A DNA stretch of 64,000 nt. It comes from Stegostoma tigrinum (lineage: Eukaryota). The notes beneath the pieces are model-generated. The model saw only the letters and a list, made by a program, of their open reading frames with translations, was not told the origin of the DNA and did not search any database. The position numbers and the translations under genes were made by a program. Shown in pieces: positions 11,815-55,200 of this stretch. The DNA lies in contig NC_081396.1 of assembly GCF_030684315.1 (NCBI RefSeq), positions 4,340,001 to 4,404,000 on the forward strand, written 5' to 3'. The stretch's first letter is position 1. The number at the start of each line of letters is the position of its first letter.

Positions 11815-13423
11815 GTAAGAAATTTGAATGTCCTCAGCAACCGTGATATTTGTTTTACTGATTTAAGTAATTCATGAGTTAAATGAAACTCGGATTCTGG
11901 GCTGTGTTTAGTCTGGTTCCAATTGACTTTTCTGCAAAGTGATGAGAAGCTACATTTAAGTCTCAGCAAATAAACAAAGTGCTGGTGACGGATTCAGTTC
12001 CTCAGGGTTCCTCTCATTTTTATTCAACAGGAAAACTTCAATTCTATGACGTTTAGGCAATGTTTAATGCAATTGACACCCACTATCTTCGAGATAGTAT
12101 CCACAACAAACGTTCAGAATTTGATGATGTTAAAATATTCCCAAGCATGAACAAAATGTGCTGAAATATTATTAACAATTTCTTGAAAATATTCCAGGTG
12201 CAAAATTCTGTTCTTGTCGTGGCTGCATTTTGTGGTTTAGTATGTTATTTTAGTTGATGGCAAGTACGTTCGTATCTGTGTTGAATTTTCCTTGCCGTGC
12301 CCCAGTTCACTCTGTTGATTTGAGTTGAGCAGTTTGATTATCACAAAGGATTTTCCATCATTTCAATCGATTGATTCAAGCTGTTTGGATTCTGAGTTTG
12401 TTTTACTTGACTCTGTTGAATTTAGTTGCTCTCATTCTGAATTTGTTTCATTTAATTTTGTTGAATTCAGCTGGTTGAATTCTGTTTCTCTGATGAGGAG
12501 ACTGTCGATTTGCTTTACTTAAAATTATTAATATTGTTTGAAGTTCGTTGCTTTCCCTGCATCGTTTCTGCACTTGCTGAACTCAATTGGCGTCATTCAG
12601 CTTACTGATTGATTTAAAACATTATATCCATTTGCAATTGTCTGAATAACTTACTGAAGGCAGAAACACAAAAGATTTGAGGATTAAAACAAAAATGCAG
12701 CATTGTAGTGCATTGTTTTTATTTAAAGTCAATTGTAGTAATAAAGTAAGTTAAGTCTGTTCTGACCATCCTCAATCAAAATACAATTTGGGTCTAAAGT
12801 CTCAAAATGCCTAAATGATTAGCTTTCATGATTGATTGTAAAGTTATTATTAGGTACAATTATAACGCGGTAATCGGTGGACATTGACCTAATTTTGATT
12901 CTAACTGAAAGTGAATAATCACTGTATGAATCTGATTGGTCTACTGTAAAGTGCTCGCAATTGGCATGAACAGGAAGGATGTACAGATTGGAATAATTTG
13001 AATTGCTGCTAAAATCTTGCTCAAAATTATATCTTGTTAAGTAAGTCAACTTTCAATTAAATCTGCTGTTTTGGCTTCTGATTTCAATATAATTTGATAA
13101 TTAGCTTGTGTGATGGTGAACAGCGTTGAAGGATTCTAGTTTGAGATTTCATTAACGATGTTACAGTTCTGATGAAAATGCCTGCAGAGTCAATTCAGCT
13201 GCAAGCGCATTCCTGTCCCTCAATGTTGTGATTTGGTGATTTTTACTCTCTTGAGAAGACAATACTTTTGGGGTATCAAAGTTGTGATATTTGTGAAGCA
13301 GTTTCCTGTCTCTACAACGTTTTACCATTGTTTACATGATTGGTGACAGTAAAATGGTCGAGTTTTCTCATTGAATGCAAACAAAATGCGAGTTTGCTCG
13401 CTGAGCTGGAGGGTCAGTTTTCA

Positions 13424-21335: not shown

Positions 21336-21374
21336 AATAGAGTTTAACTTGCTTAATCCGACATTCTTTCCCAG

Positions 21375-21671
21375 TGACTCCGTCTTCGCCGACACTTTAT
21401 GGTCTAGTCTCCTGTCGTGAACACAGCACTCATGACTCTGTGATTTTTGGATGCTTGGCGATGGACTACTCCCCTGATGTCACTACTGTGACCTGGAAGA
21501 AAGATGGGACGCAGATCACGAATGGATTTAAGACATACCCATCGGTGAGAAACAAGAAGGGAACTTATACCCTGAGCACCCAGTTAGCCCTGACCGGTGC
21601 AGCTGCGCATTGTGGAAAAGTCTCCTGTGAGGTTCGACACAGCGGGTCCGACAAGAGCAAAGAAATACAAT
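21375..21671 (+). CDS. IGHM: IgM CH1 exon, intact
   Basis: Acceptor ttcccag|. Translates VTPSSPTLYGLVSC...FGCLAMDYSPDVTTVTWKK...SCEVRHSGSDKSKEIQ. 297 nt, donor T|GTAAGT; both domain Cys and the Trp are present. Confidence 0.96.
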
Positions 21672-24402
21672 GTAAGTGTTGTGGGAATGTGGTAGACAGA
21701 TAAGTGTGCTTTACATAAATACGGTCTGATTCATAACACCATTTCACAGAATCGTAGATCTATACAGCAGAAAAAATAGCCCCTCGGCCAATCTCGTAGA
21801 TACAAAAGAAAACTACCCATCTATTCCAGCCCATTTGCCCACACAGAATGAATTGCCTTGTTGATTTGACATTGCAAGTGTAGGCTTCAATATTTCTGAC
21901 ATGTTATAAAGTTTTCAGCTTCAACATGACTCACAGGCATGCGGCTCCAATTCCAACATTGTCTGGATGATTTATTCCATTCAAAACATCTTGGCTTTAT
22001 CTAAAAACGATGTAACTGATTGTGAAATTTGGATAATTTAAGTTACCGGGAAAGGCTGAGTACGATGCATTTAATTTCCCAAGAGATTCAAAGTCTGGAG
22101 TCCTGACAGAAGTTTTTTAAAAAAATCATGAGCAAAATGGACAGAGTGAACAGTCAATGTTTTTTTTTCGCCACGGTCGGGAAATCCAAAACTGGAAGGC
22201 ATAGGCTTAAGTTCAGAAGGCACAGATGTAGCAGGGGCCATGCAAATAGTGATATGTGAATGGATTGAGGTGCCAGTGGAATTGGTGGAGTGCAATGAGA
22301 TAATTTAAAAGTTATCTGGATGGGAACATGAATAGGAAGCATTTAGATGGACATGTGGATTACATCGGGCTATATGGTCACAATAGATGTGTTACACTGA
22401 CGTGACTGTTCCCATGCTATACATGTCGACGATTCTGTGACTTTTTGGCAAGTTATAGCGCTACAAACGGTAGGTGGGGATGCACACAAAAGAATTTCAG
22501 GCATCTCAGGATTCCACTCTTTATAGTGTTAAACATTGCATGTTCTCTTTCAGGATGCATGGCTCACCTCAAAATTAGCCAGAATGATTTCCATTTTCCA
22601 TAAGCAGCCCATCGAGCCAGTCCTTCTTTATTCTACATTACCGCACAATCTTTGATTTCACTACTTACAGCTCAACAATTTTTATTTCATCTGTGAAATT
22701 TCTGAGCAACACTTCTAGATTCAAGTCTAAATATTTTATAGGCATCACGCACAGTAAGAATATTTATACTGATCCCCACAGAGGATCATTCGGCACAGAT
22801 CGCCAGTCGCATAAACACACCACGACCATCGGCCTCCACTTCCTACCACTCAGCCAGTTCTGGAACCAATTAGACATTTTTTTTCAGCTTCCATTTGCTC
22901 TTAGCTTTGCTGTCATCTCCCCACCTGGCAACTCTTTGAAAACTCCTTTCAAGTTCGTTCGGCATGATTTCCCCTGAATGAAAAACAAATGCTGACAATG
23001 TTTGATTAAACTCTTCCAAATGAAGATTAATTGTGTTCCTAGGAATTGCTTCCGATATTTTCCTTACAACTGAGTTGAGGTTGACTGTCCTCTGCTTCCA
23101 TGGTTTATTCTTTGTTTCATCTTGCTCCATGGTATACCTTAGAACGATTGACAGTCATTTGGGATATACCCCGTGGCGAAAGAGGAAGTCAAACATATTG
23201 CGATGACCTCATGCACTACCTTTTGTTCCTCACTAAACAGCCCTGGATATTTTTAATCTGCCCTGTAATACAAAACGTGAGCATCCACTCATCTAATGCA
23301 GATTTTTGAAAGCAAATCACGACCGTTCCCCATGATATTCTGGCCTCATTGTGTTTTACATCACATGTCATTTCTTTGTTGGAACAGGTTGGCCTTTTCG
23401 TCTTTCTGTTTCCTCCCTGAATGCGTCCAACTGTTTTGACTCAAATTTAAAATTAAGCGTCGATCTTAGTTCACTTTGGTCAAACTGTACCCTATCATGT
23501 TAAATATGGCCTTCCCATATTTCATAACTTTGGTTCGGATCCTTGCCTATTGCTTTCCAGAACAACTATGAATTCAATGGATTTGTGTTCAATCTCTGGA
23601 AAACGTTTCTCCTTTCACACATTAAGCACTTTGTCAGCCTCAATACCTAAAGTTAAGCCGAGGTGCAGTGTCTCTTGCAAGGCATTTTACAGGCTGAGTT
23701 TCAAATGTCAATTTCTCAATTCTGCTCCTTCTCGACATTTGAAATGATGAATTTGAAGAATTTGAAATCCTTACAATGATTACCCTATTTACCTACACCT
23801 GTCTGAAATTTTGCTGGAGGTATCCATATTCATATCTCTCGGACCTTTCGAGGAGCCTTTTCTTGCATTCCTGACAGACATTTTGCTTTATTTTGCTTTT
23901 TCAGTACTTTTCATTTGCCTTCATTTGAGGATGTATCTAGGATTTCATTCCTCTTTACTACTGAAAACATCCTGCTCAATATGGCAACAGACACCACCAC
24001 CTCTCCACCGCTCCCCACCCCGCGTCCATTTTATAACTTCCCACAATTCGTCTGAAGGCGACATCTCCAGGAATAATGTGCCTTGTCCCTCTCTCAACAT
24101 ATCTCCGTGATGTCACTACTTAATTTCCTCATTGTTCTCTTGAACTCGTCGGAATCTTTTCATTGATTTGACTGATGAATAATTTCTGCACCATATTTCG
24201 GACTTGCTATTTCTTCCAATTTTGGGACTTGCTATCAACTTTCTTATCTTTCTGCCTGAATTCCATATATTGCTGTTTTGTGCATAATTTGTATCCTTGT
24301 AATGTTTAGGCAAACATCTACTAAACACAATGAACACTGAAAGAAAATTGTTGACTCTATTTTTCACCAAACAAGATAACTTACACGATCTGTTTTCTTA
24401 AG

Positions 24403-24614
24403 GTTCATACGGTAGTGTCCCTCCGACTGTTCTCCTTACTGTGAGTTCCAGTGAAGAAATCGAGAGCAGGAAAGTTGCAACCTTAGTCTGCTCAATCTTT
24501 CACTTGAATCCAAAGGAAATCTCCGTGGTTTGGTTGAAGAATGGAAGAGTGGTAAATTCTGGTGTCTTCACTTCTCCTGTGTGTGAAGCGAATGTAAACT
24601 TCTCACACCAGTAA
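24403..24614 (+). pseudogene. IGHM: IgM CH2 exon, 3' third deleted
   Basis: Acceptor cttaag|GT. Reads ...[42 protein letters not shown]...[11 protein letters not shown] then HQ* (TAA 24612-24614). The second domain Cys region is absent; the nearby GTAATG at 24611 would be out of phase. Confidence 0.9.
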
Positions 24615-25186
24615 TGCAACTTATTTTCCATCGTGTTAAATTACATTAAGCAGAATTTCCGTGAAAGTTCACCACTCCTAAAACATAAAGTATCCATAAT
24701 TACAAAAAGAATAAGAGGATGACTACTTTTGATTACAGGTTTACTGAAATTGTTATTTTTCTTCGCACTCACCATGGCCAGCAAAATTTACATACATACC
24801 TCATGAAAGTAAAAATGAATTTATTATATTGATTGGAGATTAGTTCAAAATTATCAGTAGTTGGCCTTATGTGACGGAAGAACTGTGAAAGGAAATAACT
24901 CCATGAGTTAAATCATGGTACCATTGGTTTTTATTTTTGACACATGATTCACTTGTTTTAAAGCTTGTTTGCTTTGGTAATAATTATACAGGAAATTTTA
25001 TAGGTAATCAACAATGTTTTCACAAGTCAAAATGTATAGACAATAGTAAATATCGTTGCAGGAATAGTTGCAAGTTGCCCTCTCAAAAGTGTTTTTCTAT
25101 AACGTTGTGAGTCAATAGACTGAACACTGAGGTTTTATTTCTCAAGAAGCATTTCATCATTGATTCTGATTTCTGCTCCATTGTAG

Positions 25187-25492
25187 TTTCAGAGTGCCGT
25201 GATTAAACAGCTAAAATACTACCGCCACCAGTTGAACAGGTCTTACTGGAGGCCACGGTGACATTAACCTGCGTTGTGTCCAATCTTCATTTTGAAGCCG
25301 ACTTCACCTGGTTACACGACAAGAAGACTCTGAAATCAGAACTTGTTGACCAGTCCGGAGAGCATTCCGAAGGTGTGATCAGCAATTTAGATATTTCTAC
25401 TGAAGCCTGGCTGAGTGGGGATACATTTGAACGCGTGGTGAACAATCAGTATCTACCGACTCCACTGAGAAACTCCATCCACAAAGAGAAAT
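25187..25492 (+). pseudogene. IGHM: IgM CH3 exon with premature stop and Cys>Arg
   Basis: ttgtag| [29 protein letters not shown]...[13 protein letters not shown]...IHKEK T|GTGAGT. TAA 25204-25206; CGC 25432-25434 at the second Cys position. Confidence 0.93.
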
Positions 25493-25871
25493 GTGAGTTA
25501 AGAAATGAAAGCACAAAGCATTTATAATTTAGATCCAGTTTCATCGATGGCATGTTTTGATTGGTATTAAAGTAGCTCCGTTGATGGCATTGATGATACA
25601 TTTCCTGACAAGAAAGATAAATAAAGAATGAGGGAAAAATCAAAACTCGATTAGCGGATATTCTGTCGAGATTATATTAAAAATTGGAAGAGAACTGGAG
25701 TTTTGTGACATAAACTCCAGTAATGACAAATGTGTAAAATTTCCGAGTTCTGGGCTAATGACATGCAGATGGCATTTCAACTTTTTTTTTGTAATGAATA
25801 GAACGGATACTATTCTACTACTTTAAAAAAAATGAAAGTGAATAAAATCCAAAATAAACATGGAATAGATG

Positions 25872-26976
25872 AAGATAATAAAATGTGAGGCTGGATGAAC
25901 ACAGCAGGCCAAGCAGCATCTCAGGAGCACAAAAGCTGACGTTTCGGGCCTAGACCCTTCATCAGAGAGGGGGATGGGGGGAGGGAACTGGAATAAATAG
26001 GGAGAGAGGGGGAGGCGGACCGAAGATGGAGAGCAAAGAAGATAGGTGGAGAGGGTGTAGGTGGGGAGGTAGGGAGGGGATAGGTCAGTCCAGGGAAGAC
26101 GGACAGGTCAAGGAGGTGGGATGAGGTTAGTAGGTAGCTGGGGGTGCGGCTGGGGGTGGGAGGAAGGGATGGGTGAGAGGAAGAACCGGTTAGGGAGGCA
26201 GAGACAGGTTGGACTGGTTTTGGGATGCAGTGGGTGGGGGGGAAGAGCTGGGCTGGTTGTGTGGTGCAGTGGGGGGAGGGGATGAACTGGGCTGGTTTAG
26301 GGATGCAGTGGGGGAAGGGGAGATTTTGAAACTGGTGAAGTCCACATTGATACCATATGGCTGCAGGGTTCCCAGGCGGAATATGAGTTGCTGTTCCTGC
26401 AACCTTCGGGTGGCATCATTGTGGCAGTGCAGGAGGCCCATGATGGACATGTCATCAAGAGAATGGGAGGGGGAGTGGAAATGGTTTGCGACTGGGAGGT
26501 GCAGTTGTTTGTTGCGAACTGAGCGGAGGTTCATCCCCTCCCCCCACTGCACCACACAACCAGCCCAGCTCTTCCCCCCCACCCACTGCATCCCAAAACC
26601 AGTCCAACCTGTCTCTGCCTCCCTAACCGGTTCTTCCTCTCACCCATCCCTTCCTCCCACCCCCAGCCGCACCCCCAGCTACCTACTAACCTCATCCCAC
26701 CTCCTTGACCTGTCCGTCTTCCCTGGACTGACCTATCCCCTCCCTACCTCCCCACCTACACCCTCTCCACCTATCTTCTTTGCTCTCCATCTTCGGTCCG
26801 CCTCCCCCTCTCTCCCTATTTATTCCAGTTCCCTCCCCCCATCCCCCTCTCTGATGAAGGGTCTAGGCCCGAAACGTCAGCTTTTGTGCTCCTGAGATGC
26901 TGCTTGGCCTGCTGTGTTCATCCAGCCTCACATTTTATTATCTTGGAATCTCCAGCATCTGCAGTTCCCATTATCT
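25872..26976. mobile_element. Penelope-like element 3' end inserted as an inverted repeat (416-bp arms 25872-26287 and 26529-26944) in the CH3-CH4 intron
   Basis: Arms are reverse complements with no mismatch noticed. The loop encodes the GIY-YIG C-terminus on the minus strand (LPVANHF...RRLQEQQLIFRLGTLQPYGINVDF). TSD CATGGAATAGATGAA at 25859-25873 and 26977-26991. Confidence 0.92.
26849..26880 (+). ncRNA. Minimal type-I hammerhead ribozyme motif in PLE terminus (mirror copy on the minus strand at 25936-25967)
   Basis: CTGATGA-A-GGGT(CTAG)GCCC-GAAA-C-GTC. Intact core boxes, stem II, loop-less palindromic helix III (ACGT), only a 2-bp helix I. Confidence 0.7.
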
Positions 26977-27063
26977 CATGGAATAGATGAATATTGGGTA
27001 AAATCCCAATCCTGTTTCCTTACGATTTAAAAATAATTCATACTTTTTTCAAACATTTTGCAG

Positions 27064-27394
27064 TGATAAATCCACTGGAGCCATCGGTGTCCATCCTGCT
27101 GCCAACGACATAAGAAGTCTCCGCACAGAGATTTCTTTCACTCACCTGTTTAGTGAGAGGCTTCAGGCCGCGAGAGATCTTTGTCAAGTGGACAACCAAT
27201 GACAAGCCAATTAATCCCAGTAACTACAAGAACACCGAGGTGACGGCAGAGAGCAACAACACTTCATTTTTCTTGTACAGCCTATTAACAATTGCAGCGG
27301 AGGAGTGGAGCCAGCGGTGCTTCTTACTCCTGTGTGGTGGGACATGAAGCGATTCCATTGAAGATCATCAGCAGAACAGTTGATCAATCCAGCG
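27064..27394 (+). pseudogene. IGHM: IgM CH4 exon with stop and +1 frameshift
   Basis: ttgcag| [41 protein letters not shown]...AAEEW[+A 27309][31 protein letters not shown] 27111-27113; internal TM donor G|GTGAAC at 27395. Confidence 0.94.
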
Positions 27395-27456
27395 GTGAAC
27401 CGAGTTTTGTGAATATTTCGCTTGCACTGATGGACGCCATCAATTCATGCCAATGA
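27394..27456 (+). pseudogene. IGHM: IgM secretory tailpiece ([20 protein letters not shown])
   Basis: Contiguous with CH4; N-glycosylation sequon NIS and penultimate Cys; TGA 27454-27456; ATTAAA at 27479-27484. Confidence 0.92.
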
Positions 27457-28639
27457 AATTTTAAGGTTACAGTAAAGAATTAAATGAAAGTAATAATGTG
27501 TTTTCTTTCTTCAATTTGTCATTTAAATAGACAATCGTTTAATTTATGGTATTTCTCACTTTTCATAATATTCCGCCCTTCCAGTAAAAGTCGATAGATA
27601 GCAGGACTAGGAATCGTGTCTTGTGCAGTTAATGCTCCTTGCTCAGACCAGTCCTTGTTCAGTGACAGACAAAAGCTCAATCATTACGGCATTCAGCAAA
27701 GCACCTTCCCCATCTTAAATGTTACTGCGACAAAATTTGACAATGTCTATTCCATCACAAATGAGCATCATGGATTTTGATCTTGGCTTCCCTGATTCCA
27801 CAATCGCCTATATCTTGAAAATTCATGCCAGCTTTTAAATGCCCCATTGCACCCCCTTGGAGTATACCCTTTCGTGGCATTTAAAACAATGTTTGATTGT
27901 GACACACCAAGAAGGAAGTATTGCTTTGGTTACCAATCATATTGAGTTCAGAGTAACTTGAATTTCTCCTTTTATCGGTGCTATGCCAGGGACCTAAGAC
28001 CAGTGCATCAGTTAACAGAATCCATTTTTTTCAAGTCCACAGCAAACATAATAGAAAGAAACGTTGTTATTTCAAACATAGGGAGAAGCGGGTAGAATGA
28101 GTAATGGATGATATGCGGACACCACTTGCCTAGAGTTCACGTTATATGCCCTCTGTATTGTGATTTCTAGCTGACAGGAAGAGTCAGCTCATTGCTTACT
28201 GGCCAGTGATTCAAATCTACCAAGCAATATAATTCATTTGAAACCTATTCTATACCCTTGATCCCGTTAATCATCTGTTAACATTGTTTCTGCGGAATCA
28301 AAACCAACTTGGCATTGTTCCAGTTTATTTTCAACAGTTCTGACTCAAATTCCTGGAACCCGAGGGATCAGTTCTGGGATACAAACACAGGACATCATTT
28401 TCTTTCACTTGCTGTGGACATATTTTGCACACAAATTTCTCAGAAATGTAATTCTCCATCTCGAGAATGGTCGGAATTTTATTTGAGGAATTTCATTTCA
28501 GAGACAGAAGTTCTGACTTTGCACCAAGAGTTATTCACGTAGCGCTTATCTGTTCACAACAGTGACAAATCTTCCCTTCACCATCAGGGGCAGAGCTAAT
28601 CATTGGCAATTGATGATAGTTACAAAACAGTCAAAAAAA

Positions 28640-29800
28640 ACTCAGTCCGGTAGAAGAGCAGAAACAAATACAAATGCTCACAAACGCTCGCATGACACAG
28701 ATATACAAGCTCTCACCAAAAGGGACATAATTATGTTCAAACATAACTGCGCATACACGTAAGTTGCCACACTGTATGCATGCACACCATACATACTGAA
28801 CGGCACATAAACTGTCCCATAAAGACCAGTGCATTGAAAGAAACACACCCAAATAAACAGGGTCCACCATGCAAAATCATGAAAAACATAGACCCACGTC
28901 AGCACACAAACTCTCTTTAATACATATCCCTTCATAACCATGATACGTACAGATATGCATTTATAAACGCACACATACAATATCCAAGATATATCCTCCC
29001 ATGTACGCACTCACACACATAGACATATGAGTGCAGAGGCAAACTTTAATTTCATCATTATCCCACTTGCAGAAATCTCGACATCTGAGTTAAGAGGCGG
29101 CTTAGTTACTTATTTTACAAAATACTTTAATATACACATCAGAACGTCCACGCATGAACACAATTTCTGAGTCTCACAGGCAGACACAGAAGTGCATTGA
29201 CCAATGCACAGTGGGGTATTTTCAATGAAGGGGAATAGCACAACATCAATAAACATCCACACCTAATAGCACAAAAAAAATCATTTCAAGAGTTGGTTTA
29301 GAATGTAATGACATGCAAATAATAACATCACATAAATTTAAACATGAATCAATACATGAAGTTACACACGAACATAACATGTTTATGGAGCACAAACATG
29401 AAAATAGTTTGAGTCTGGCAGAGTCTGCAATCGATACATAAACACACATTTTCAATCGCACTATACAAACAAAAACTCTCAACGTCATTAAAAAAATATG
29501 GTAGGTATCAACGAATGAGGTAGCATATTAACATAACGTTGCTAACATGTGAAATGAACACAATTTACCGAAAAAGCACAAAGATGTTAATGAACATAAC
29601 GGCGCCCAAGCAACTAGAATATGCTTGGCCATGCATAATCTCCAAAGAGAATACATGTGAAGGAAGAGACACTCATAACCACATACCCAAACAATAAAGG
29701 GAAAAAAAGTACACACCAAGCTGCAGACAAAAAAAACTAAGGTAGAGTTCACAAAATTAAAAAAATCTCAGCGTAGACAGATAATGCAAACAAATATATG
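28640..29800. repeat. Degenerate CA-rich low-complexity tract between CH4 and TM1
   Basis: Strong A/C bias with many ACAC/ATAC units; produces spurious V/C/M-rich ORFs on the minus strand. Confidence 0.65.
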
Positions 29801-30272
29801 AAATAATGATCGTACTCTTGACCAATTTATATTCATGATTTGTCGAGCAATTAATCACATATAAAAATGAAAGATCAGTCGTCACATTTGAACTCATATT
29901 CACTGATGACCACAATTTTCAACTTAACAGCTGCCGCTGCCTATATTGCAAATACAATGCCATAATTAATGTAATCGTTCCCAATCTGTGAAATGACAAC
30001 AGTGATTATATTCTCCATTAATATTTTAAATAAAGAAATGCGTCAAAATGTTCAGACGTGGCTAACCAAGGAAGAACATGTCCAAATGGGATTAGCAAGT
30101 CTTTGCTGGCAAGAAATAAAACAACAATAGGTGGAGATCAAAAGTCAAATTTGAGAACAACCTGACAGCTTGAAGAACGCGTGACAGTTCTTAATTACAA
30201 TATTTAGAGAAAGATATATCAGACTGGGTCAATGAACAATCTCAACTCGTTGTCTCGTTTTTATATTCATAG

Positions 30273-30400
30273 ACTCCAGAGATCATAATTGGATTGAACA
30301 CTCTGAGGATGATAACGGCAACATGTGGACAACTGCTTCTACATTCATTACCTTGTTCTTTCTGAGCATTTTCTACAGTGCTGCCGTCACACTGGTCAAG
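30273..30400 (+). CDS. IGHM: IgM transmembrane exon TM1, intact
   Basis: tcatag| (D)SRDHNWIEHSEDDNGNMWTTASTFITLFFLSIFYSAAVTLVK |GTTAGA; conserved antigen-receptor TM (CART) residues. Confidence 0.96.
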
Positions 30401-30539
30401 GTTAGACAAATGAAATCGCTTGCACCTCAAACAGGCCATTGTTGTTTGTGCAATCTGGTTGTGTGTCAATGAATTAAAATTAAAACCTGAATGCCCTGAG
30501 CATAAATATTTACATCTTTACCTGATCACTCTTTTTCAG

Positions 30540-30548
30540 GTCAAGTGA
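30540..30548 (+). CDS. IGHM: IgM TM2 exon (VK*), completing the KVK cytoplasmic tail
   Basis: ctttttcag|GTC AAG TGA, 139 nt after TM1. Confidence 0.92.
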   Translation, partial: VK

Positions 30549-32689: not shown

Positions 32690-33649
32690 AGTGATATTGA
32701 CATGCTGGTGGCTCCAGACTTCGTCTTCATCAAAAAAAAGTGTCTTCTGAAACTGGACGCAGTTTTCCAGGTGAGCTGAGCGACTGTTTTATTTAAGTTT
32801 AACGTAATTCCTTTCATTTTTACCTCCAGCAGTATTAATGAAGAAATGCATTTTCTGCACTTCCCCTGACATGTCATGGCACATTCACTGATTTGTGCAC
32901 ATAGTCAGGGAGGATCCTCAGCAGATTGGATGGCTCCGCAACTCTTTCCCACATGCTGAGCGTTGAATGGCTTCTCCCCAGTATCAGTTCGGTGCTGTGT
33001 AATGAATTTACAAGACTGCCTGAATATCCTTCCACAGGTATGGCAGCAGAATTGTTTTCCTTCATTTTGAGATGGAACGTATGACAAGGGGATGATGGAC
33101 TTTAAAAATTCCTTCCCACACATGAAGCGAGTCAATGACTTAACCCACAAATAGCTGTGATGATATTTTCCCGGAGAAGAAAGAATCGAATTCTGCAGTG
33201 CCCAAATACTCATGGATATTCTGTGGTGCTGGTCTCCTTCTGAGTGTGGTCATGCTTTGTTAGCCTGGGTGGATAATTAAATACTCTGCCACAATTCTGA
33301 CATCGCCACAGTTTCTTCATTTTGCTGGTTTTCTCTTGTCTCTGCAGTTTGAATGATCAGTTGAAGTCTCATATACACACACTACACTTAGTTTTGTGTC
33401 AATCTGAATATTGCATTTGTTTTAATTTCGACAATTGAAACCTTTCCCATATTCAGTGAGGTTGAAATCTGTCACTGAAATGCATATGTGCCTCAGAGAA
33501 TTTGCAGTCACACTGACCTTTGAACTGTTATAACACAGGCAGGGCAGGCAAATATTTCACATATCATATTTAGTGATCAATTACAGTCAGGTCCAGATAA
33601 TTCATGCGATTGACAAATTTTCGTGCATTGTTTTGTTTGCGTTTCCCAT
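32690..33649 (-). pseudogene. Decayed C2H2 zinc-finger array gene
   Basis: Minus strand KQFCCHTCGRIFRQSCKFITQHRTDTGEKPF, further CGKEF and YGKGF remnants, many frameshifts; acceptor gtttcag| at 33650. Confidence 0.75.
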
Positions 33650-40985: not shown

Positions 40986-42399
40986 TGTCTCCAGAGCAAA
41001 AAAAGCATCTGCCTACCTACTTCTTTAAGCATTTAATGTTCCTTCTATTACTGTCTTCTGAATCAATGTTCCAAAGGTGAACGACTACCTAGTCTCACTG
41101 CTAAGCAATAGCTGCCAATTTGAAAACCATTATCCATATTTGTGGATTGATGAAGCAGACAAAATATGTTTTCAGTGCAAACCTTATCAAGAGCATTCTG
41201 GAATGTGCAAACTTAAATCAAGTCACTGCTCATTTGTACCAGCTTCACTCCAACCTATCTTGATCAGACACTCCACTTTGTTAAGGTCAAAATCTCTCCT
41301 GAAGCATTTATAATTACATCCTATGTTAAAGCTGAAAGCCAAGCTCCGCACAGCTTGTGTGTCATAGCATCATCAATGCCCTCTAGAATTAAAGCACATC
41401 ATTGTTAACTTTCTGTTCAACTCATCTAGCAACAAAGATTAGCATCTCATTTGCCTTCTTGCCAGCTATCTGTGCCAGAATATTGACTTTTTGTGATTCG
41501 TGCACATGAACAATTAAATTCTTCGAAAACTACGCAGTTGTTCTCCGTTTTGTAACTTCCGGGTGTTTTCAAATCTTATATTGTTGCACATTTTGCTATT
41601 GTCTGCAAACTTAACGACAATATCTTCGTTCAACTGACCAACGTCATTTATTTACGTTTTCAATATTTGATAATCCAACAAAGTCAGATTCAGCTTGTCA
41701 CATCATTCCAATTCGGAAAATAAATGCCCCCTGATGATTTGTTATATTTTCCCCCGTCATCCAATCTTGTATTCAACATCGTATCCATTCTCAACTGCCA
41801 AAGCTTTTATTTACCACGACAAACATGACAATAATCTCTGAATGTCGAAGTGCAGTAGCCTTAAGGTTTTCCTTTTTTCACGATTCATTTTGCTTCTTCA
41901 TGAAGCCCAACAAATTGGTCAAACATCATCTCCCATTGAAGAAGCCACGGTGAACCTTCCCTAGTGCTATGGATGTTGTCCATGGGCTCAGTGAGAACAA
42001 ATTGGAGAAATACAGGTGCTGGACATCTGAATCATATACATAGAATAAAGGAGAAACTTAGCATGCCTGGCTGAATTTGTGGGAAGAAAGCAGAATTAGC
42101 AATTCAAGTCTTGTGGCTCTTCAGAAAACTGAGCTTTGGGAAAGAATAAATCGGCCGGAAACTTTACCACCGCTTTCACCCAACAAATTCACGAAAGCAG
42201 TGTCAAACGTATGGTTATTGATGTTGTCAGGACATCAGATCAAGATTAATTTTCAGGAAGTGATTTCAAATTGAAGCCAGTCCAAACTGTCAACATTTTT
42301 CTTCTGGATGACCTATAGATTTTAGAGGTGCAGACTTGTTCTTTGAATGCTTTAACAGCAGCGTTGTTTGTTCTGTCTGTGTATTGGGTAATTTCCATT

Positions 42400-42960
42400 G
42401 TTAGTTCGGCATTTGTACTTTAAAAGAGTATTTAATGGTTCAAGGAATAAATTTAAAAAACATAATCAAGCATTCGACAAATATCGGAGCTGGATTGCAG
42501 CACATTTGGTAATGTGTATAATTCTGGTCTCTCTTCATTAGAAAATGCAGGAATGTAAAGCACAATATAAGAAAGATTATGCAACTGTGACTAGAATTGA
42601 GAGATAATAACTCACAGAAAGAAGTGTGTTGACTTGTGTTCCTTTCTCTACTAATGGGAAGACTAACGGTTAACTGGACTGATGTCTTTAAAATGTTTAA
42701 AAGATCTTATGTTGCGTACACAGAGGAGAACGTTGCAATTGAGGAAGATTCGAGAACTATAAATTTTAAAAATCAGTGGCACACAACAATCGAATAAGAT
42801 TTCAGTGGAAAAATTGTTTAGCCTTAGAACAGGAAAAATATGAATCTTAATGCAACAGTGGTGATTTGATTTGAAGAATAAAGTTGTGTTTTAAAGGGAA
42901 CGATGCAAACTGTGGAGTGGGACAACGATGCAGGGTTTTGCTAATAAAATTGAGGAAGAG
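42400..42960 (+). mobile_element. Very old CR1-type LINE 3' fragment
   Basis: Degenerate similarity to the other CR1 3' fragments (GGAAGACTAACGGTTAACTGGACTGATGTCTTTAAAAT). Confidence 0.45.
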
Positions 42961-43136
42961 GTAGGAAGGATGTTTGTGGTAATTTCAGACACAGGCATGA
43001 GCCAAATGATACGAACGAACTTTCACTCTTCTAACTTCCACCTACTTCAGATAACATCATGAATTTCTGAATTGACACTACTTTGCTCGAATGTTTAAAT
43101 CACTGATTTTGGCTGTGTTCACCTTGTGATCCACAG

Positions 43137-43453
43137 ATGAGTGATGGGGTTTCTCTAGCTCTGTAGGATTCCTTGTTCATACAGATCGAGCTTTATCACT
43201 GACGATGTTTATTATTTGTTCTGATACCGTCAGTACCTCGGTAGATAGCCCGAGTTCGCAGTCTGAATGTTCAAATGCTGCGGTTCTGAAACAAAATGGC
43301 TTTCACGAAAATCCGCTTTTCTGACGTAGTCCAGCACTCGGACAAGTTCTACCACTTGACAATCCCGCAGCCCCTGTTGTCTGACTCCCCAGTCTATGAC
43401 TGTTTAATGAGTCTCCCCATGATTGGACTCAGTGAAAGCCTTGTACAGTCGCC
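43137..43453 (+). pseudogene. Decayed TCR Valpha/delta-like V segment with 23-spacer RSS remnant
   Basis: Acceptor ccacag|. Reads SFITDDVYYLF*YRQYLGR*PEFAV* (TGA for the Trp of WYRQ at 43222), a frameshift, then AFTKIRFSDVVQHSDKFYHLTIPQPLLSDSPVYDC (DxAxYYC-like). Followed by CCCCATG, exactly 23 nt, ACAGTCGCC. Confidence 0.72.
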
Positions 43454-45652
43454 ACGAGAGGTTTCTGGGTCACATCTGCTGCCTGCTGATGGCGACAATA
43501 ACAGCAGGCCATCCACTGAAGATGCAGCAGATGGCCGTGAGGGAAAAGTCCCTGAAGACAATTCAGACAAAGAGCATTTAAAGTTGGATAATTCTGATTA
43601 TTGCATTTGGAACGAGGAGTGAAACGGTTGTTGTTTGTTTTGTAATCTCTCCAAACTCTCCTTTCATTTTGGTAGAGAAAACAAACTCTGCAACCTGGCC
43701 ATCACTGGCTGTATCCAGGGAACACAGATTCGTGAGGGTGAAAACATTAATTTTCGATGCGAAATTCCAGAAAGTCTCATGGACTATAGACTGCCAGGTG
43801 AAGAAATTTCGAATAATTGCAGTAACCTGATTCAACAACACTCAAAGTTAAGGATACACATGGTAAAGACTCTGAATCTATTCCATAACAAAGGAAAATG
43901 GATATGTTTCAAGTACATAATGCGATGATGATGTTCAATGATATATATGGCGATAATCTGAAAGGATTGGCAAGTGGTTTCCTCGGAAATCTTCGTCAGA
44001 AAATCGATTAAATATTCAACTCTATAGGAGTGCTTTGACAAATCTGAATTTTAAGTGCACAAAAAGCATTTGCTTTATTTAAGAGTGACCCATCTCACGT
44101 CACTGTCATGTTTCAGTCAAAATGAACGACTGGAAGACAATGCCCACAGATATTTTGGAAGCCAGTCTTTCTGAAAAGATTAAGTTATAATTTGGCATAA
44201 ATTCCCTCATCATATGTTTGAATGATGTTTGCAATGCACCGACATAAATGGAGCAAATGCAACCTTCTTCAATCAGCACCTATTAATCTCTGTTGTTGAA
44301 TGTTCGATTTTATCTCAATTCACAGCTTAACAAGAAAACGTTCAATAAGTCCTGCTTTCTGTACAGGTCACACGGCCTGTGCATGTCCCACTGTCCACTC
44401 CACTTACGTTTTTTTCCCAATGACAAAATGTTTTCTTTCGTCCAAGGTTCCTCTGGTTCCAGTAACAGGATATCTCAGCCCACAGCAATATACAACGCTG
44501 TCAGACGGCTGCAGCTCACTCATAGTGGAATTCCCCTCACTTCTGGAATTGGCCAGAAATAGCAAAAATCAAGCAACAATGTCAAAATTCTGACAACATT
44601 CCCATATTTAGTGATGAGGATTCTTAAGTTTGGAGACTTTCTGGGGTCCTGAAGGTACAATTCCAAGTAATATGTACAGTCTCTTGACAAACAAGTGAAA
44701 TAAATAGCCAGTGCATTACCTTCAAACTGTACCACAATAACTGGCTCCAGCGAAATCGAATCTGCACAATTAATGCGGACAGAAATATCGAAAGAAAATG
44801 TCATTCAAATGATGATGATACCCCCTGTTACCACGTGATTGCTTACATTGCCATTTGGAGAAAGAAAACCAAAGTGAAATTTGCAATAAGCATACTACCT
44901 AGATTTCGGCATTTGAAGACACCTTAACTTTCAAGTTAAGAGAGTTACAGCAGTGAGGAAAGAGCAAATATAAAGACCACACATGTTTGCAGAATTTATG
45001 GTTGGTTTGTAAAATAAAGCTAATTGAATTTAAATTGTTTCAGCAAAGATTCAACAATGTGTCTTATCAGGCCTCCATACCCATTGGGTTAGTGTCGGGC
45101 AGAGACACAAGGTTTCACACCATCAGCTTTTATTCTTCCTCTTCTCCAACCAATGACATCAAACTGCTGCTCAGTTGACCTGAGCGTGGGAGCTAGAGGA
45201 GATTGCTTGACCAATCAAACCGACTCGAACATGAATAAACTCGTGTTTGAAAGAATTCAGTTCAGGCAGAATCCATGTATCATTTCTGTGTTTCAAGATT
45301 CATTCATTTGTCAACAGTGGATTAAAATATACTCAAAGCCACAGCGAGAAGCATTTTCTGAGCCCAATAATGCCGAAAGGAGTTTTTTTTTGTCTTTAAC
45401 GGAGACAAGTTGGATATTTATAGTTCGGAATTAATGTCGTTGTTGGACCTCCTCCATTTGGTGCAATGCTCACTGATCATGTGCAACTCGCATGTGAATT
45501 CTTCCACAGGAATGTACTGAATTGTCAATGTGAGACCCTATAAACTGCCCTCAACAGAGTGCAGATGGGACACAGATACCTGAAATAGTTATTGTACGAG
45601 CGTTTAACTCATTCGCATCACAGTCAGACCAAATTACACAGTAATAGTCAGT

Positions 45653-46744
45653 GCCAATCATCCAACCTAAACTTTGGGTCCACGATGTGGATGACACCTT
45701 TGTCATCACTAAACAAAACAAATTAGAGGAAACCTTCAAGATCATCAATAATACCCTTTACTGGCATAACATTCACAAAAGAGGAGGAAAACAAAAATAA
45801 ACTTCCATTCCTAGATGTCACAGTCGAGCGAACAGCCAGTGGGGAACTTCAAACCAGCGTCTACACGAAAACAGCACATATGGACGAAATACTGAACTAC
45901 AGGAGCAACTATCCAACACCCACAAACGAAGCTGCATTAGAACATTATTCATACGAGCCCCGACACACTGCAGCACAGAGGAACTACGCAGAGCAGAGGA
46001 AAATCACCTATACAGTGTATTCAAAAAGAACGGATGCCCTACGAAAACAGTCAGCCGATTCCTCAGCAATAAACCCAAACAAACAGATAAAACGGGCTCA
46101 GAAACCATACCCACTCTCCCCTGCATCAAAGACATTTCCGAAATGATTGCCAGACTACACGGACCTCTGGGCATCAGGGGAGCCCACAAACCCACCAACA
46201 CACTAAAACAGCAGCTATGAACTTAAAAGACCCCATACAGACAACAAATAAAGCGAATATCATCTACAAAATACCTTGCATGAACTGTGACAAACACTAC
46301 ATTGGACAAACAGGCAAACAGCGAGCCACCAAGATACATGAACATCTCCTAGCCACAAAACGACATGATACACTATCACTCGTATCCTTACAAACATATG
46401 AGGAAGGACGCCACTTTGATTGGGACAACAAAACAATCCGAGGACAAGCCAAACAGAGACACGCACGAGAATTCCCAGAAGCATGGCATTCCACCCGGAA
46501 CTCCATCAACAAACACCTTGATTTGGAGCCAATCTACCATCCGCTGAGAAAAGGAACAGGAAATGACATCACCAACGAAAGGAAACCGAACCAGATAAAT
46601 AGAAAGTGCGACATAACTCCAGTGCTTCGTCGGAGGCTCACTGATGATGTTACCCAGAATGGTGACGAAACTTCTGAAAACTAACCTTGCAGCTCGGCGA
46701 GCAAACGGACATCCAGAACCTCAACCTGAACTACAAATCTTCTC
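45653..46744 (+). mobile_element. 5'-truncated Penelope/Poseidon-type retroelement (RT, GIY-YIG, hammerhead-like motif at 46641-46674)
   Basis: LWVHDVDDTFVI...LPFLDVTV...TSVYTK (RT YVDD region); NIIYKIPCMNCDKHYIGQTG (GIY-YIG); 10-bp TSD AATAGTCAGT at 45643-45652 and 46745-46754. Confidence 0.9.
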
Positions 46745-47513
46745 AATAGTCAGTTGTGTCAGACATCAGCATCTCCGAGATATTCAATTGGAACAATCAG
46801 TTTATCGGTTGGAGGGTATCAGAAAAGTATGCCTCAGAGAAATTTGCCTTTACTTCAGCAGAACGTCCCGAGTGCCTCCAGGCTTTAAACTCAGGCTGTC
46901 TACCTGGGCACTGACGGCGCCAGCTTAAGGAATCAGCATAATCAGAGACGGTGCACTTTCAAGTGACATCTTCTCCATCTGTCTTTGTTGTTGTTGAGAA
47001 ACAGAAGCTCCACCGCTCAATTCTGGAACACAACGTTATAGAAAAACAGCGATTAAATATTGCATTGAACTGAATTGCAGGTGGGAAGACACGGCACTAC
47101 GAAAACAAAGCGAGGATTGAAAGGAGAAAAGAAGACCATTTCGTGCACCAGGCCAATGTCTGTGAGTGTTATAACTAGCAACAACCTGTCTACATCAGCC
47201 TTTAATTTGATGAGCAAATCTCCCCATCCCTTCCTCCGATGCACATTATTCTTGGCTCATTTTAATTTGCTATTTGTTATTCACTCCAAATGGCCACGGC
47301 CATGACAACCACATTTTACTTGATCTCTTGATGAATGAAATTCTCAAAAAGCCTTCATGGATCATTCTATGGCAAACAATGTGTTCATTTAAATTTATCA
47401 ATGTGGAATCTTTCTCCGGTGGGAATGTGTTATCTTTGTCCAGAACAGAAGATATGTCACCAATGGAATGTCACCAGTCTGGTTCCTCGTTCGTCTTCTC
47501 GCCAGCTCAGAAA

Positions 47514-48543
47514 CTCAGGGGTTCATTATGACTGGCTTTATGAACAGCAGGTATGAGATGGTAAACTGTGAAAGTTATTCTGTTCTCTCAGACCAAATTC
47601 ACATGTTGATATTCATGTTGATAACAATGAATTAATTGTTCATAAATCCGTTTATAGTAAACTACAACATGTACTTCATTGAATTTCAAATGACGCTACC
47701 TCTTGCCGAAGCATATGCTGCTATTGGTGCGATTGGAGAGAGTGCAGACTTTCTTCAAACGTTAGCATGGTGACTGAACAAGTTCTAAATAGAAAGAAGG
47801 TAGCTTTGAAAAGTTGTTAGTTGATTTCTGTAGTTTGAAGAATGTGTAGATTTTAAAATGAGTTACTTGTTATGAGATCTGCAGTTGTAAATAATAAATT
47901 TAGACTAACTGTCATGTTTTTCGGCAGTTAATGTGGCTTGAACAAAGTATCATGACATTGAAGTTGTTAAAATGAAGAATTGTGTTAATGTTGAATAACA
48001 TCCGAAGTCTCCATAGATTGGTTCATTGTTGAACATCGTCAGCAGGTGAACTCCAACAGCCTACTGCTCGTTTCTGCACCAGGTTCTGACATAAGATGTG
48101 CAGCAGTGAATGGAACAAGGACTGAGTCAAGAATTAAACTCAATGTTATTCTTTGAATATTTTCCATCTTCGAGCTGGATGGTCTTAAGTGAATCAGCTC
48201 ACGTTGCCCTGGTATCAGCACCGAATATTCCCTTTAAAATATCTGTGCAATGACTTTTAACCTCCCTACGGGTGACGTAATGTGGGGAATAGACCAACAG
48301 TGCGATTATAACGGGTCACGCTCAGGGGTTTAATATGAATAGCTTTTTGAGCAGCAGATATGAAATGACAAACTGTGACAGCTATATTGCTCTGAAAAAC
48401 CAACATCACATGTTGATATTTACAACAAATTAATTATTCATTAAACCATTTATAATAAAATAATGCCGGTATTTTATTGAATTTCAAATGAGGCTGCCAC
48501 CTGTGGAAGCAGCTGCTGCGATTTAAGAGAGTGCAGACTTTCT
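47514..48543 (+). repeat. Diverged direct duplication (~47514-47754 and ~48321-48543) spanning an exon 3' end and splice donor
   Basis: Shared blocks CTCAGGGGTT, CAGCAG(G/A)TATGA, CACATGTTGATATT, ATTGAATTTCAAATGA and GAGAGTGCAGACTTTCT. Confidence 0.8.
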
Positions 48544-50980
48544 ACTAAGTGTTTGCTGGGAACGAGAAGAAATCTATTCTTAAGGACAGAACTTTCCAAT
48601 AGAAAATGTCCACCTCAATTAAAAACACTGCATTTTACAATTTCTTTCATTGCATTTTCTGAGTTTATGATCACGATGGTCAGGAATTTTGTCTTCTAGC
48701 AATATGGTTGAGAGTTTGGAGAGGTGTTTGGTCAGATTTTGACACTTCACTTGGTGGAAACCTGTTACAATGCAGGGGCATGTGCATGCCCTTTGTCAGT
48801 TCAGTCTCAGTCTGACATGTCAGAATCCTGCAATTGTTCTGTATTGAAGCAGAGTCTTTCAAGTAAGTGGAGGACGTTTTTGAATTTAACAACAGACGCC
48901 ACAATGGCAATGGGTTTATTTCATGAAATCTATTGCTGCAACTGAGTACAGATAGATGTGACCTCTTTGCCCAGCTTCACATTACTGACGAAAGTTTCCT
49001 TCTGCAAGAGGAACAAGCGCTAAATCTTAGAATGCAATGGGAAAAATGTAATAATGTTTCCCTGCTTCAAAGAAATAGTATGGGTCACTATGCAGTCCTG
49101 TAAACGAAAGGATACTTGCTTGTTTCTACATCAGAGGTGGCACAGGCCAGAAAATGATGGAGACTCTGGGAGAAAAATTAAGGGGTGTCAGCAGACAAAA
49201 AGCTGATTTATGTACAGGGAAGTAAAAATATTGAAAGGCAGTCGCGGAAGGTTGAGGTGATTACTCATATTAACATGGAGGGAATCAGTTGACGAGCCAT
49301 TGAGAGAAACACATGAAGTGTCAGGGAGCCATGGCAACTGACAAATACGGAGAAGCAACGAACGTCACTATGCATGAATAGGAGAGGGGGAAAGGGTGAG
49401 TCACAAGAGATATACTGAGAGAAACGTTGATTGAAATGTCAACATGAATTTCAGGAAATGCAATAAAATAAAATGAAACATGGAAGTTGTGTAAATTCTG
49501 AGAGACATTAGAATTTCTCCGGTCGACATAACAAGATTGATCCTATGTATTCATCAAGAATTTATGAATGTCAGCGTTTTAACTACAATTTGGGATCTAT
49601 CTGGGATCTATCTGCTTCTACTTCACACAAGTCATTCGACAATTCTAATGGACAGATGATGAAATCACTGAATCGGTTTCGAAGTGTTTCAAAAAATGCA
49701 GNNNNNNNNNNNNNNNNNNNNNNNNNNNNNNNNNNNNNNNNNNNNNNNNNNNNNNNNNNNNNNNNNNNNNNNNNNNNNNNNNNNNNNNNNNNNNNNNNNN
49801 NNNNNNNNNNNNNNNNNNNNNNNNNNNNNNNGTACATTGAAACTTTTTTTTCTGTTTAGCCTAAGCTTTCTGTGTTAATCTTCATTTCAAGGCTACTGCT
49901 GGAGGTGGAAGATTTCTTTCTCTCTTGTACATTAACGAAGCATATGGTATTTTCTGACAATGCCTGTCGTTTAATGGTCACCACTTCACCTTTGATTCCT
50001 TGTGATTGCAGACTGACTAAAATCAAATTTGCATGTTGCTCTGGGCAAACTTTAAATCAGGATGAATACCCAAATTTTCCTAAATGAATTGTTTGGGTGG
50101 TTGATCACTATGTTAGCGATTTCATAACCGATGGCGGGAATGTGCAAACACTATGTCAGAGCTCCCTCTTTTGAGGATAAGAAATACAGAATCCTTTTTT
50201 ACTTCTGCAAATACATTGAATTCTCAAGAAATCGACAGATTTTGCTGCCTGTCTATGTGAACTATTCTTATCATCACTGTTCCTCGCATAATACATTTTA
50301 AACAGATGAGCGTATTTTCCAGGATTTCTTATCAACTTCAGCTTGAATTATCTTCATTCATTTTGATTTTTTTTCAATCAGTGTTTTAGAAACACCTGGC
50401 ATATACATTCAAACTAATGTGAAATCACAGTGATCACCACAAATGGACATGTTCACACAAATAAAGAAGATAGACAAAATTCTGTTTAAAAATATATCCT
50501 AAATACCGTGGAACTTCAATGAGGTCACATCGATGTGAAGCTTTCCCTCGTGTTCAGTGGGTTGTTACTTTTGTGTCAGTTGTAACTGCTCGCATGACCT
50601 GACTTTGGCATTGATAACTGGGAGATTAGTGGAAGAAACTGAAAATTGATAACCTGGAAAGTATTGTCAGTGCCTCATTGTTTGAGGTTAGAACAGAATC
50701 ATCGAGAAACTTTCGGATTTCTAGTAAACAGTATGTTTGGTTAATAGTTTTGTCCGAGTATTGAAAAATGCTACTGCTTTTGACAATTTCACCCATACCC
50801 CCTGGATTGTGAAGTTAGAATGTACTAGATATAGATTCATAAACATTCAGTGTGAGGTGCTTTATCTGCTCCAGGCAAAGGACAAATGCACAAGGAATTC
50901 TGGATCATGCACGATCACAAGGCAAAATATCAGCTCCCGTTATAACCAAAACAAATGGTGTAGAACAGTAACCTGCGACA

Positions 50981-52234: not shown

Positions 52235-55200
52235 TGCCTTCACTGCAGGTGTGTTTTGCACATGAGTCCAGACCCACAGCAGCGCAGTTGATACTGATTT
52301 GCTTTGTGATGCGGCATCGCAGCGACTCAGTTAAAATTGTGATTGCTAACAAACGTTGCTCTTGTCCATGATTTCAACATCCATGAAGCAGCAAGTAAAT
52401 TCATAATTTGAGTAACTGGCCCAGCAAAATTCTCAGCACTGAAATCTGTCGCAATTATTTTTTCGAGTAAGCTGCAATTAATCAACAGCCATATGTACAC
52501 TTTTTGTTTGTTTCCAAAATAATTGTTGTTTATTTTACCATGTAAATATTTTCTGTCCTTTTTTCATACATTTACGTTATATTTTTATTCCCTTGCTTCC
52601 TCTTTACTTTGTTGCATTTTTGATTATTCCTCTTACTTTCCCTTCATGTTCTGTTGGAAATGTTTACAGAACTTTGTTTTGGACAGACTTCATTTTTCAG
52701 GAAAATGAATGTTTTTAAAAACAGCAACAGTTTTCCAAGCACAAAATACAATTCTCTCAAGGTTAAATGTTTCACAAAATTTCTCCGACAATATGACCTT
52801 GTTTTGAATTGAAATGCGAACTTTCTAGTTCCTCCAATTTCTCAAACAGATTGTCTCAGTCTTCTTTTCCCGCATAACATAGGAGTGATTTGATCCATTC
52901 TCAGAGAATATGTGGGCAGGCTTGGTGTATCAGTTATTAATTAATCATCGTGGCGTCGACAGTTCTGCTGTCAGTGGCCACACTGGTGTAATATTCATCA
53001 GTGTAATTTAATTGTCGTTCAGTTTCCTGTCAATCACACCGATGTGCTGTCTCTGTTTTTGTCTTGCCCTCCATAGCTGAAGACAGTCTCCCTGGTTGAC
53101 AGTTGATTTCACCTTTGACCAACACGTGCCCATTTCTGGTCAGAGCTGAAAATAAACTATTGCACTTTGAAAGCAGCATCTCGTTCTTGTCCGCACACAC
53201 ACCAACATCAAATTTATGCTGTTATATTCTGTAATTGAACACTGGAATAAACTTTTTAGCATGTGGCTCTGCAGAGTAAAACTGATATTCGATTTGATAC
53301 CTGAATAGGCTGCCTATGATTGCATCTATATCATTTTAATACATTCTCTCCCAATGATTTTGATCTTACTGACCAATGTATTTCTGTTGCATATTTTTCA
53401 GTGATACAGAAATTATCCAAAATACTCCAGCACCTCAACAATAACGAGTGTCAACCTGTCCCAGAGGCTGAGAAGCCGAGAAAGTGCATTTTTCCACTCT
53501 TTCTGATCTCGTGAATTTTAACCTGCATTTTGTAACAATCAAGATGCTCTCACCACACTGTCTTGTGCTTCCACTGGTGCTGTGAAACTGGGAAGGGGAG
53601 CTGTGTTTTTTTATCTTTTTAAGTTAATCGACAGCCCACATGGAGGGCCAAACTATTTTTGGGAAAATATACTCGTACAATTTGAGCAATAAATTTGTCT
53701 TTTAGCGCATCTGTTTCTGACTTTCAGAATATAATGCCGACACTCAGGCATACCTTCATAAAAAGACTTATTGATGGCCCATACAAGAGAAGCAGAGCCT
53801 AGCCAGTCATCATTCTTAGGATGGATATTTGATAAACTATCTAGATGGATCCACACCTCGATATTTTAAACAAAATTTTATTTTACAATATATTTATTCA
53901 ACTTCAGTTTGAATTTTACTCGTCAGTTATTTATCCAGACCCCTGTCTGGCCTCAGTTTCAACATCAACATTAATTTATTTAACAAAAGAAAAGGAATTA
54001 CGATTTTTATCGATATCCTACACTGATCAAAAGTTAGAAAACTTTTTTTTTCAGTGTAAGTTATGAAAACAATATCAATCCAACTCTTGAGGAAGAAATC
54101 CCCATGTTACTCTTGTATGACGGGAGATCAAACTCAATCAGACGGGAAAAAATGGACCTCAGTCTCATTTAGAGAGATTACATTTCTAATCGTGCCAGAC
54201 TCCTGCAGAACTGGCTACAAGAATTGGATTGTAGGATAAGGCCCCGATTGATGCAGTTTGCATTTTTGAAATTGAATTGACGCCTCTGGTTTAAAGATCA
54301 GATGGGCGACATTTGATTCCACATGGCGAGCTAACTGGACAGTGGAGAAACAAAATCACGAAGAGATAAATGGCATGAGGTTTGCACGGAGGGCGATGAA
54401 TATATTATTTATTTCCCACTGTTTAATAGAAGCAATGTCAGTGACGGTGGAGCACAGCAGGATGCTCTTCATCCCCTCTCAAAAACGTTTCTGGGTCACC
54501 GCAGAGATGCAGACATTCTGGTTGGGGTTAAATATTAGGGACGTGTTCGTCATCTCTGAAAGAATGCACTGTAGCCATTGAAATCATCAAGGCTGAAATA
54601 GAATCTGTCCGTGGAGGAAATGCACAAAACATGTGGTCCACAGAAGGAGGAAGCTGAGAGAAACAGTGAAGAGGAGGACAATTGACTTGTGGCTGATTGA
54701 CTTCTCCAGTGCTTCTTGCTTACGTTTGTCCCAGAGTCTCCTTCGGTCTTGGCTGGCTGCAGTGATGAGTCTGGCGGTCAGAACATTGAGAAGCAGAATG
54801 AAATTGTATCAGATAAACGGAATGAAGATATATTCCAGCTCTTGGTCAGCCTCTCAGGTGAGTGAGGTGTAAAATGTATGCCTAACGTCACAGAACGACG
54901 GCACACCATCCCGTATACGCATGGGCTGGTAGCTGACGTCCAACAATGATCTTAACACTGATCAGCAGACAAATTACTCCTATGGTCAGAGGTGCAACTT
55001 GGTCAGACCAGTTTCTGTTCTTCAGGCTCTGGAAGCAGGTGGCCACAAAATGGACACTGATAAAGACCACAATCCACCAGGGTGAGAAATCCTGGGAGGC
55101 AAATGCCAGGACATTATTGAGCTTGAAAGAGGGAGTTGTTACAGGACGCATTCATGAAAGTTGCTCCCAATGATCTGGCTGATAATGATGACACGGATGT

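Follow-up and report, generated by a model that had tools for sequence, protein, structure and literature searches.

A 64-kb stretch of the Stegostoma tigrinum genome (the window, to which all coordinates refer) carries a dead TCR alpha/delta-like V segment, V1, one of three V relics lying beside a broken IgM minicluster, likely within a mixed Ig/TCR complex; V1 was likely already dead when it was duplicated. We give this reading a probability of roughly 0.8. The coordinates of the features are collected in Table 1.

Table 1. Immune-receptor features of the window, with the evidence for each
Feature	Position	Strand	Evidence
IgM minicluster: leader, VH, two D segments, one J	10055..11815	+	Pfam V-set E 8.9e-16
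IgM CH1-CH4 and TM1/TM2	21341..30548	+	Pfam C1-set matches for all four CH
V1 leader-exon relic	about 43015..43050 (inferred boundaries)	+	homology to V2 promoter/leader region
V1, decayed V exon, probably of TCR alpha/delta type	43135..43414	+	alignment to V2; PDB and protein-library matches
V1 23-spacer recombination signal remnant	43415..43453	+	heptamer 4/7, nonamer 5/9; spacer 15/23 with V2
V3, a third V relic; possible leader with ATG near 44984, signal remnant	44430..44984	-	nhmmer, DNA score
V2 3' end (DYYCVIWS) and signal GACTGTG-23-ACAATAACT	45587..45652	-	5/7 plus 7/9
1092-bp repeat inside V2	45653..46744	.	10-bp target-site duplication (45643-45652, 46745-46754)
V2 5' portion: leader relic (ATG 47139), V exon from 47022	46745..47139	-	Pfam V-set E 2.3e-5

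Structure and lesions of the V1 exon

The two protein motifs by which a preliminary description recognised a V segment at 43137..43453 are both present, in two different plus-strand frames: one carries YYLF*YRQYLGR*PEF, the other RFS...LTIPQPLLSDSPVYDC, with the Cys codon at 43401. The segment itself stands; on alignment to V2 its start likely moves from 43137 to 43135, behind a mutated acceptor. Stop codons include TGA at 43222, in place of the expected Trp, and TAG at 43246, besides others. The span from Trp to Cys measures 179 nt against 180 in V2, which points to the loss of one base near 43299, and an FR1 deletion seen in the V1/V2 alignment removes about 13-20 bases, Cys23 among them. 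As regards the V-set hallmarks, Cys104 is kept, the codon of Trp41 is TGA and Cys23 is gone; the exon ends three residues past the second Cys and has no J-like GxG strand. Its CDR1 reads ITDDVYY, without Cys; two Tyr codons there are one change away from Cys, and a Cys codon may have decayed to Tyr. The residues IPCSY (43168-43182) were considered as the first Cys of V1 and rejected, the V2 alignment showing the Cys23 region to be deleted and IPCSY to be a chance occurrence. Judged as a functional V, the exon fails in its open frame, its splice sites and the CAC of its heptamer, all of which are damaged; with Cys23 deleted, the Trp codon a stop and the frame shifted, V1 can encode nothing now.

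Recombination signal and leader relic

The heptamer/nonamer remnant with 23-nt spacing that had been described earlier is there, and consists of CCCCATG (43415-43421), 23 nt and ACAGTCGCC (43445-43453), beginning 2 nt past C-L-M-S. Scored against the consensus, it is equalled at 0.55% of 123,326 window positions, whereas the spacer identity between V1 and V2 was reached by only 2 of 20,000 random 23-mers of the window. Weak when taken alone, the signal therefore needs its context, namely its expected place and its alignment with the better signal of V2. The CAC of the heptamer is lost in the V1 of the window, and most contigs among the rows listed (40 of 348 substitution rows) have A at 43416, which gives CAC. 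Without CAC, the heptamer of V1 is predicted to be unable to recombine.

A leader exon, which the preliminary description had not recognised, could be traced. Comparison of 42900-43120 with the promoter/leader region of V2 gave a score of 83.7, reached in 0 of 300 shuffles (maximum 58.2), and the 64% identity between V1 and V2 from promoter to signal thereby revealed a decayed leader exon of V1. It has lost its start codon, contains one stop, has AT instead of GT at the donor, and reads ELSLF*LPPTS in its phase-1 frame; no intact ATG-to-GT leader was found at V1. The candidate leader MFKSLILAVFTL at 43091 was rejected, being intronic by homology to V2.

Neighbouring relics V2 and V3

Two further V relics, V2 and V3, both on the minus strand and within 4 kb of V1, are newly found here. 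From acceptor to signal, 204 of 319 aligned bases are identical between V2 and V1 (score 180, against a maximum of 80 in 200 shuffles), and nhmmer aligns the two with E 1.3e-22. The 1092-bp insertion interrupts the last codons of V2; beyond it lie the final residues of V2 and its signal, the quality of which is reached by 0.011% of positions. The end of the insertion matches a repeat at 13528-13648, and a GIY-YIG-like motif suggests a Penelope-like element, for which there was no Pfam match. When V2 alone was compared with PDB, it matched mostly light chains and scFv.

V3 stands tail-to-tail with V1, to which it is related by nhmmer (E 0.0036) and by DNA score (108.7, shuffle maximum 77.4). 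It is more decayed and its V class is less certain than those of V1 and V2: its 3' part matches Pfam V-set with E 0.065, and its 5' part matches mostly kappa light-chain V domains in PDB (best E 0.014). Its CDR1 region contains a Cys (RDCTYY) and a leader-like stretch lies upstream; an origin as a NAR-TCR supporting Vdelta may be less firmly excluded for V3 than for V1. Four other, weak profile matches (40755-40651, 58299-58222, 4073-4180 and 2415-2329) were rejected as V relics, their scores lying within those of the controls.

Domain class of V1

None of four single-frame translations of V1 matched Pfam. A teleost TRAV profile was built from 109 of 120 listed proteins, and V1 scored 31.0 bits on it when frameshifts were allowed for, above the reversed window (at most 23.7) and eight shuffled windows (at most 22.3); repaired with X at the breaks, V1 reached 31.4 bits, whereas the best of 200 shuffles scored 3.9. 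The VH of the window scores 33.7 bits on the same teleost TRAV profile, so that the score of V1 shows a V domain and not its class.

The class is addressed by the homology searches. With stops as X, the 5' frame of V1 had 34 matches in PDB, all weak (E 0.33-1.7), of which 32 were TCR alpha chains (31 named so and one named only T-cell receptor); the other two were a nanobody, which ranked top, and a TCR beta chain. The 3' frame had two PDB matches, the best being the TCR entry 1tvd, which we take to be a Vdelta (weak, E 0.72), and it matched V-set clusters at 0.92 in Atlas. A search of 1.84 billion proteins with the 5' frame gave four matches. Three of them were V-set arrays of teleosts (best E 2e-6); the fourth (P0002) was set aside as an unrelated repeat protein. 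In a search with a perch domain, the closest named relatives of these arrays among the 120 of 280 matches listed were TCR alpha V domains; none of the same 120 was named as a cartilaginous-fish protein, all being from bony fish or unnamed. Neither the 3' ORF nor the V2+V1 alignment had a match in word-index protein searches. With a profile of V2+V1, NITR V domains of the catfish type and scFvs ranked higher than the TCR alpha chains of PDB or were mixed with them, NITR10/11 V domains being 3rd to 6th (E 4e-7 to 8e-7). At the DNA level, V1 and the VH of the window score 56 against each other, below the shuffle maximum of 73. On PDB and protein-library evidence, and by comparison with bony-fish rather than shark TRAV, V1 is likely most similar to TCR alpha/delta V domains, in agreement with the pseudogene class first suggested for it.

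Genomic versions of the V1 stretch

Genomic contigs of four runs were compared with 42300-44300 at 80% likeness. Three runs, from two samples of one study, yielded 72, 67 and 71 contig pieces, with likeness ranging from 99+% down to less than 90%, these contigs being short and possibly including alleles; in the fourth (X8), no contig piece matched 42300-44300 at that threshold. In run X1 (n=72), 26 pieces were at 99+%, 17 at 95-99%, 18 at 90-95% and 11 under 90%. Among the 24 of 216 pieces listed, one that covers 42796-43226, and with it the FR1 deletion of V1, shows 48 differences and is free of gaps; another, covering 43253-43588 and the frameshift near 43299, shows 35 and is likewise free of gaps. 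Versions about 10% diverged thus have the same indels as V1, so V1 was likely duplicated when already dead. Two other contig versions lack 560 and 197 bases of the V1 segment.

In all, the V1 stretch exists in no fewer than four versions, the window's own included, which supports a duplication of the relic; the preliminary description had, as one option, a relic co-duplicated with the IgM cluster unit. The depths of the versions are similar in run X2 (21-26 each), and separate loci fit this better than alleles, although depth is not a copy number. One contig joins at 43197, with upstream letters, read by eye, that spell EDVTFTCT, an FR1 with its Cys; intact relatives of V1 therefore likely exist.

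The IgM minicluster and other features of the window

Miniclusters of the V-D-D-J-C type are known for cartilaginous fish, and the IgM cluster of the window fits this type. Its VH (10055-10572, plus strand) has an intact leader, an open frame and the signal CACAAAG-23-ACAAAAACA; a Cys replaces the conserved Trp. CH2 ends prematurely, CH3 contains a stop and no second Cys, and CH4 a stop plus a frameshift, so the cluster looks dead, with assembly errors possible in its exons. TM2 ends at 30548, which places V1 12.6 kb downstream on the same strand, exactly as first described. No TCR D, J or C was found within the 64-kb window, where J motifs were those of the IgM JH and repeat-borne matches. 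The CH3-CH4 intron contains a perfect 416-bp inverted repeat with a 241-bp loop (25872-26944), which is either a recent foldback or an assembly artefact. A second inverted repeat (31052-31503) with 144-bp arms, 83% complementary, comes right after TM2.

Several other features were noted. The sequences at 47514-47739 and 48321-48537 form a tandem pair, spaced by about 800 bp, with 74-79% likeness and without Pfam match; they were rejected as D or J, having no J motif. At 50426-50463 (plus strand), a perfect heptamer, a 22-nt spacer and a 6/9 nonamer have no V, D or J beside them in the scans and probably occur by chance. A broken rhodopsin-family GPCR-like sequence lies at 54553-55151 (minus strand; 7tm_1 E 0.042), and C2H2 zinc-finger debris at 59772-60059 (plus strand; zf-H2C2_2 E 3.9e-6) and, by motif only, at 32908-33249 (minus strand). 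The Pfam search over 30.5-64 kb covered 14 chosen pieces, and runs of N at 6455-8422, 20559-20693 and 49702-49831 (2102 bases in all) hide the sequence there.

Discussion

The setting of V1 resembles what has been published for other sharks. According to Flajnik et al. 2025 (PMC12227049), IgM, IgW and IgNAR miniclusters show linkage with TCR alpha/delta within an elasmobranch antigen receptor complex, and TCR alpha/delta-type V exons, some of them pseudogenes, lie between IgM clusters in several elasmobranchs. For one chromosome of the great white shark, its Table S1 records nine IgM models with V exons of this type in between; in the great white shark list, two V exons are marked pseudo and one V lies 28 kb from an IgM that is marked 'pseudo?'. 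At three places in that species, 9-1-like or 9-2-like V models stand 45-85 kb before a same-strand IgM, which, on our own reading of these tables, hints at a repeated unit. The window and this complex are alike in the IgM minicluster, in nearby TCR alpha/delta-type V in both orientations and in the pseudogenes, some published IgM clusters also bearing the mark 'pseudo?'. They differ in that the published features, as tabulated, are NCBI gene models, which are unlikely to cover relics decayed to the degree of V1-V3, and in that the gap between V1 and IgM is 12.6 kb here, with no TCR C found within the window. Ig and TCR parts are likewise intermixed where TAILV and IgM/IgW VH serve TCR delta, as the same source has it; those, however, are Ig-like V serving TCR, whereas V1 is TCR-like and has no DNA likeness to the VH of the window. 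Two V relics in the opposite orientation, together with the published layout, support the mixed Ig/TCR region proposed in the preliminary description, and a linkage to TCR C genes would follow from that layout. With such an arrangement already in print, V1 is ordinary, one more instance of it. The literature covered held no work devoted to TCR V relics co-duplicating with IgM clusters, a weak result, as key papers on NAR-TCR, TAILV and linkage lie outside that scope.

With conventional TRAV/TRDV segments V1 shares the split leader, the FR2 pattern W-Y-R-Q-Y-x-G-x-x-P-E-F, the FR3 pattern L-S-D-S-x-V-Y-x-C, an exon end three residues after Cys and a 23-spacer signal; it differs from them in that all its functional hallmarks are damaged. 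The main alternative concerns location only: the V relics could be passengers of an IgM minicluster duplicated elsewhere, the window being an orphan unit outside the TCR locus. The occurrence of the V1 stretch in at least four versions with flanks, the decay of the IgM cluster and of all V relics alike, the GPCR-like and zinc-finger debris downstream, and the mention in PMC12227049 of some Ig genes outside the complex would all suit such a unit; three relics in both orientations nevertheless resemble a piece of a V array, and in the tables of that source the TCR chromosome holds both TCR-type V exons and IgM clusters, which leaves the orphan location unlikely. That motifs have arisen by chance in intergenic DNA, as the missing single-frame Pfam match and the PDB E-values near 1 might suggest, is refuted by the scan, in which V1 exceeds all controls, and by the V2 alignment and nhmmer relation to V2, itself V-set-positive.

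The remaining alternatives would make V1 another kind of V. As a NAR-TCR supporting Vdelta, it would be the second V, without a leader, of a chain that rearranges twice, an origin entertained in the preliminary description. The presence of a V domain of TCR delta type in this region of shark genomes, the Vdelta-like FR3 of V1, its two Tyr codons one change from Cys, and the NAR-TCR cassettes that PMC12227049 places among great white shark IgM clusters accord with this. Such segments, however, have no leader and carry a Cys in CDR1 according to PMC1845163, whereas V1 has a leader relic, which argues against this origin, and the Cys-free ITDDVYY; the extra codons ahead of its FR1 match those of V2, as in a leader-derived exon start, and no NAR V-D-J or J motif lies upstream, the plus strand between IgM TM2 and V1 having no V or J above background, although the TRAV profile could miss a decayed NAR V. 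We therefore regard a supporting-Vdelta origin as very unlikely. Scarcely credible, too, is descent from a V-set gene that does not rearrange, such as an NITR-like or UrIg-like one, with a signal present by chance: the ranking of NITR10/11 and the weakness of the V1 signal by itself would allow it, but V1 has no J strand, 23-spacer signals that align with each other follow both V1 and V2, and paralogous contigs have CAC at the heptamer.

On the preferred reading, of a dead alpha/delta-like V in a mixed complex, V1 would once have been a conventional V segment, with a leader and a 23-signal, and likely a member of a TCR alpha/delta array; as long as it was intact, RAG would have joined it to D segments of TCR delta or J segments of TCR alpha. 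It would then have decayed and been copied with its flanks by segmental duplication, after which the copies would have decayed further; V1 would be birth-and-death debris of a V array holding embedded IgM miniclusters.

A more tentative extension, which probably does not hold in full, is that the IgM miniclusters multiplied across the TCR alpha/delta V array in the form of a single large repeating unit, taking dead TCR V segments along, and that the VH here survives only as a donor to TCR delta. The donor idea is based on the open VH with intact leader and CAC-bearing 23-signal beside dead constant exons. If the spread as one unit were true, lesions common to V1-type relics would date and order the duplications of IgM clusters, for which the insertion in V2 provides a clean marker. 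Beyond gene models, the window adds three relics, several genomic versions and lesions that appear older than the duplication. If such relics travel with IgM clusters, they would be neutral markers of the multiplication of IgM clusters inside the TCR locus, and would also mark the clusters placed to lend VH to TCR delta.
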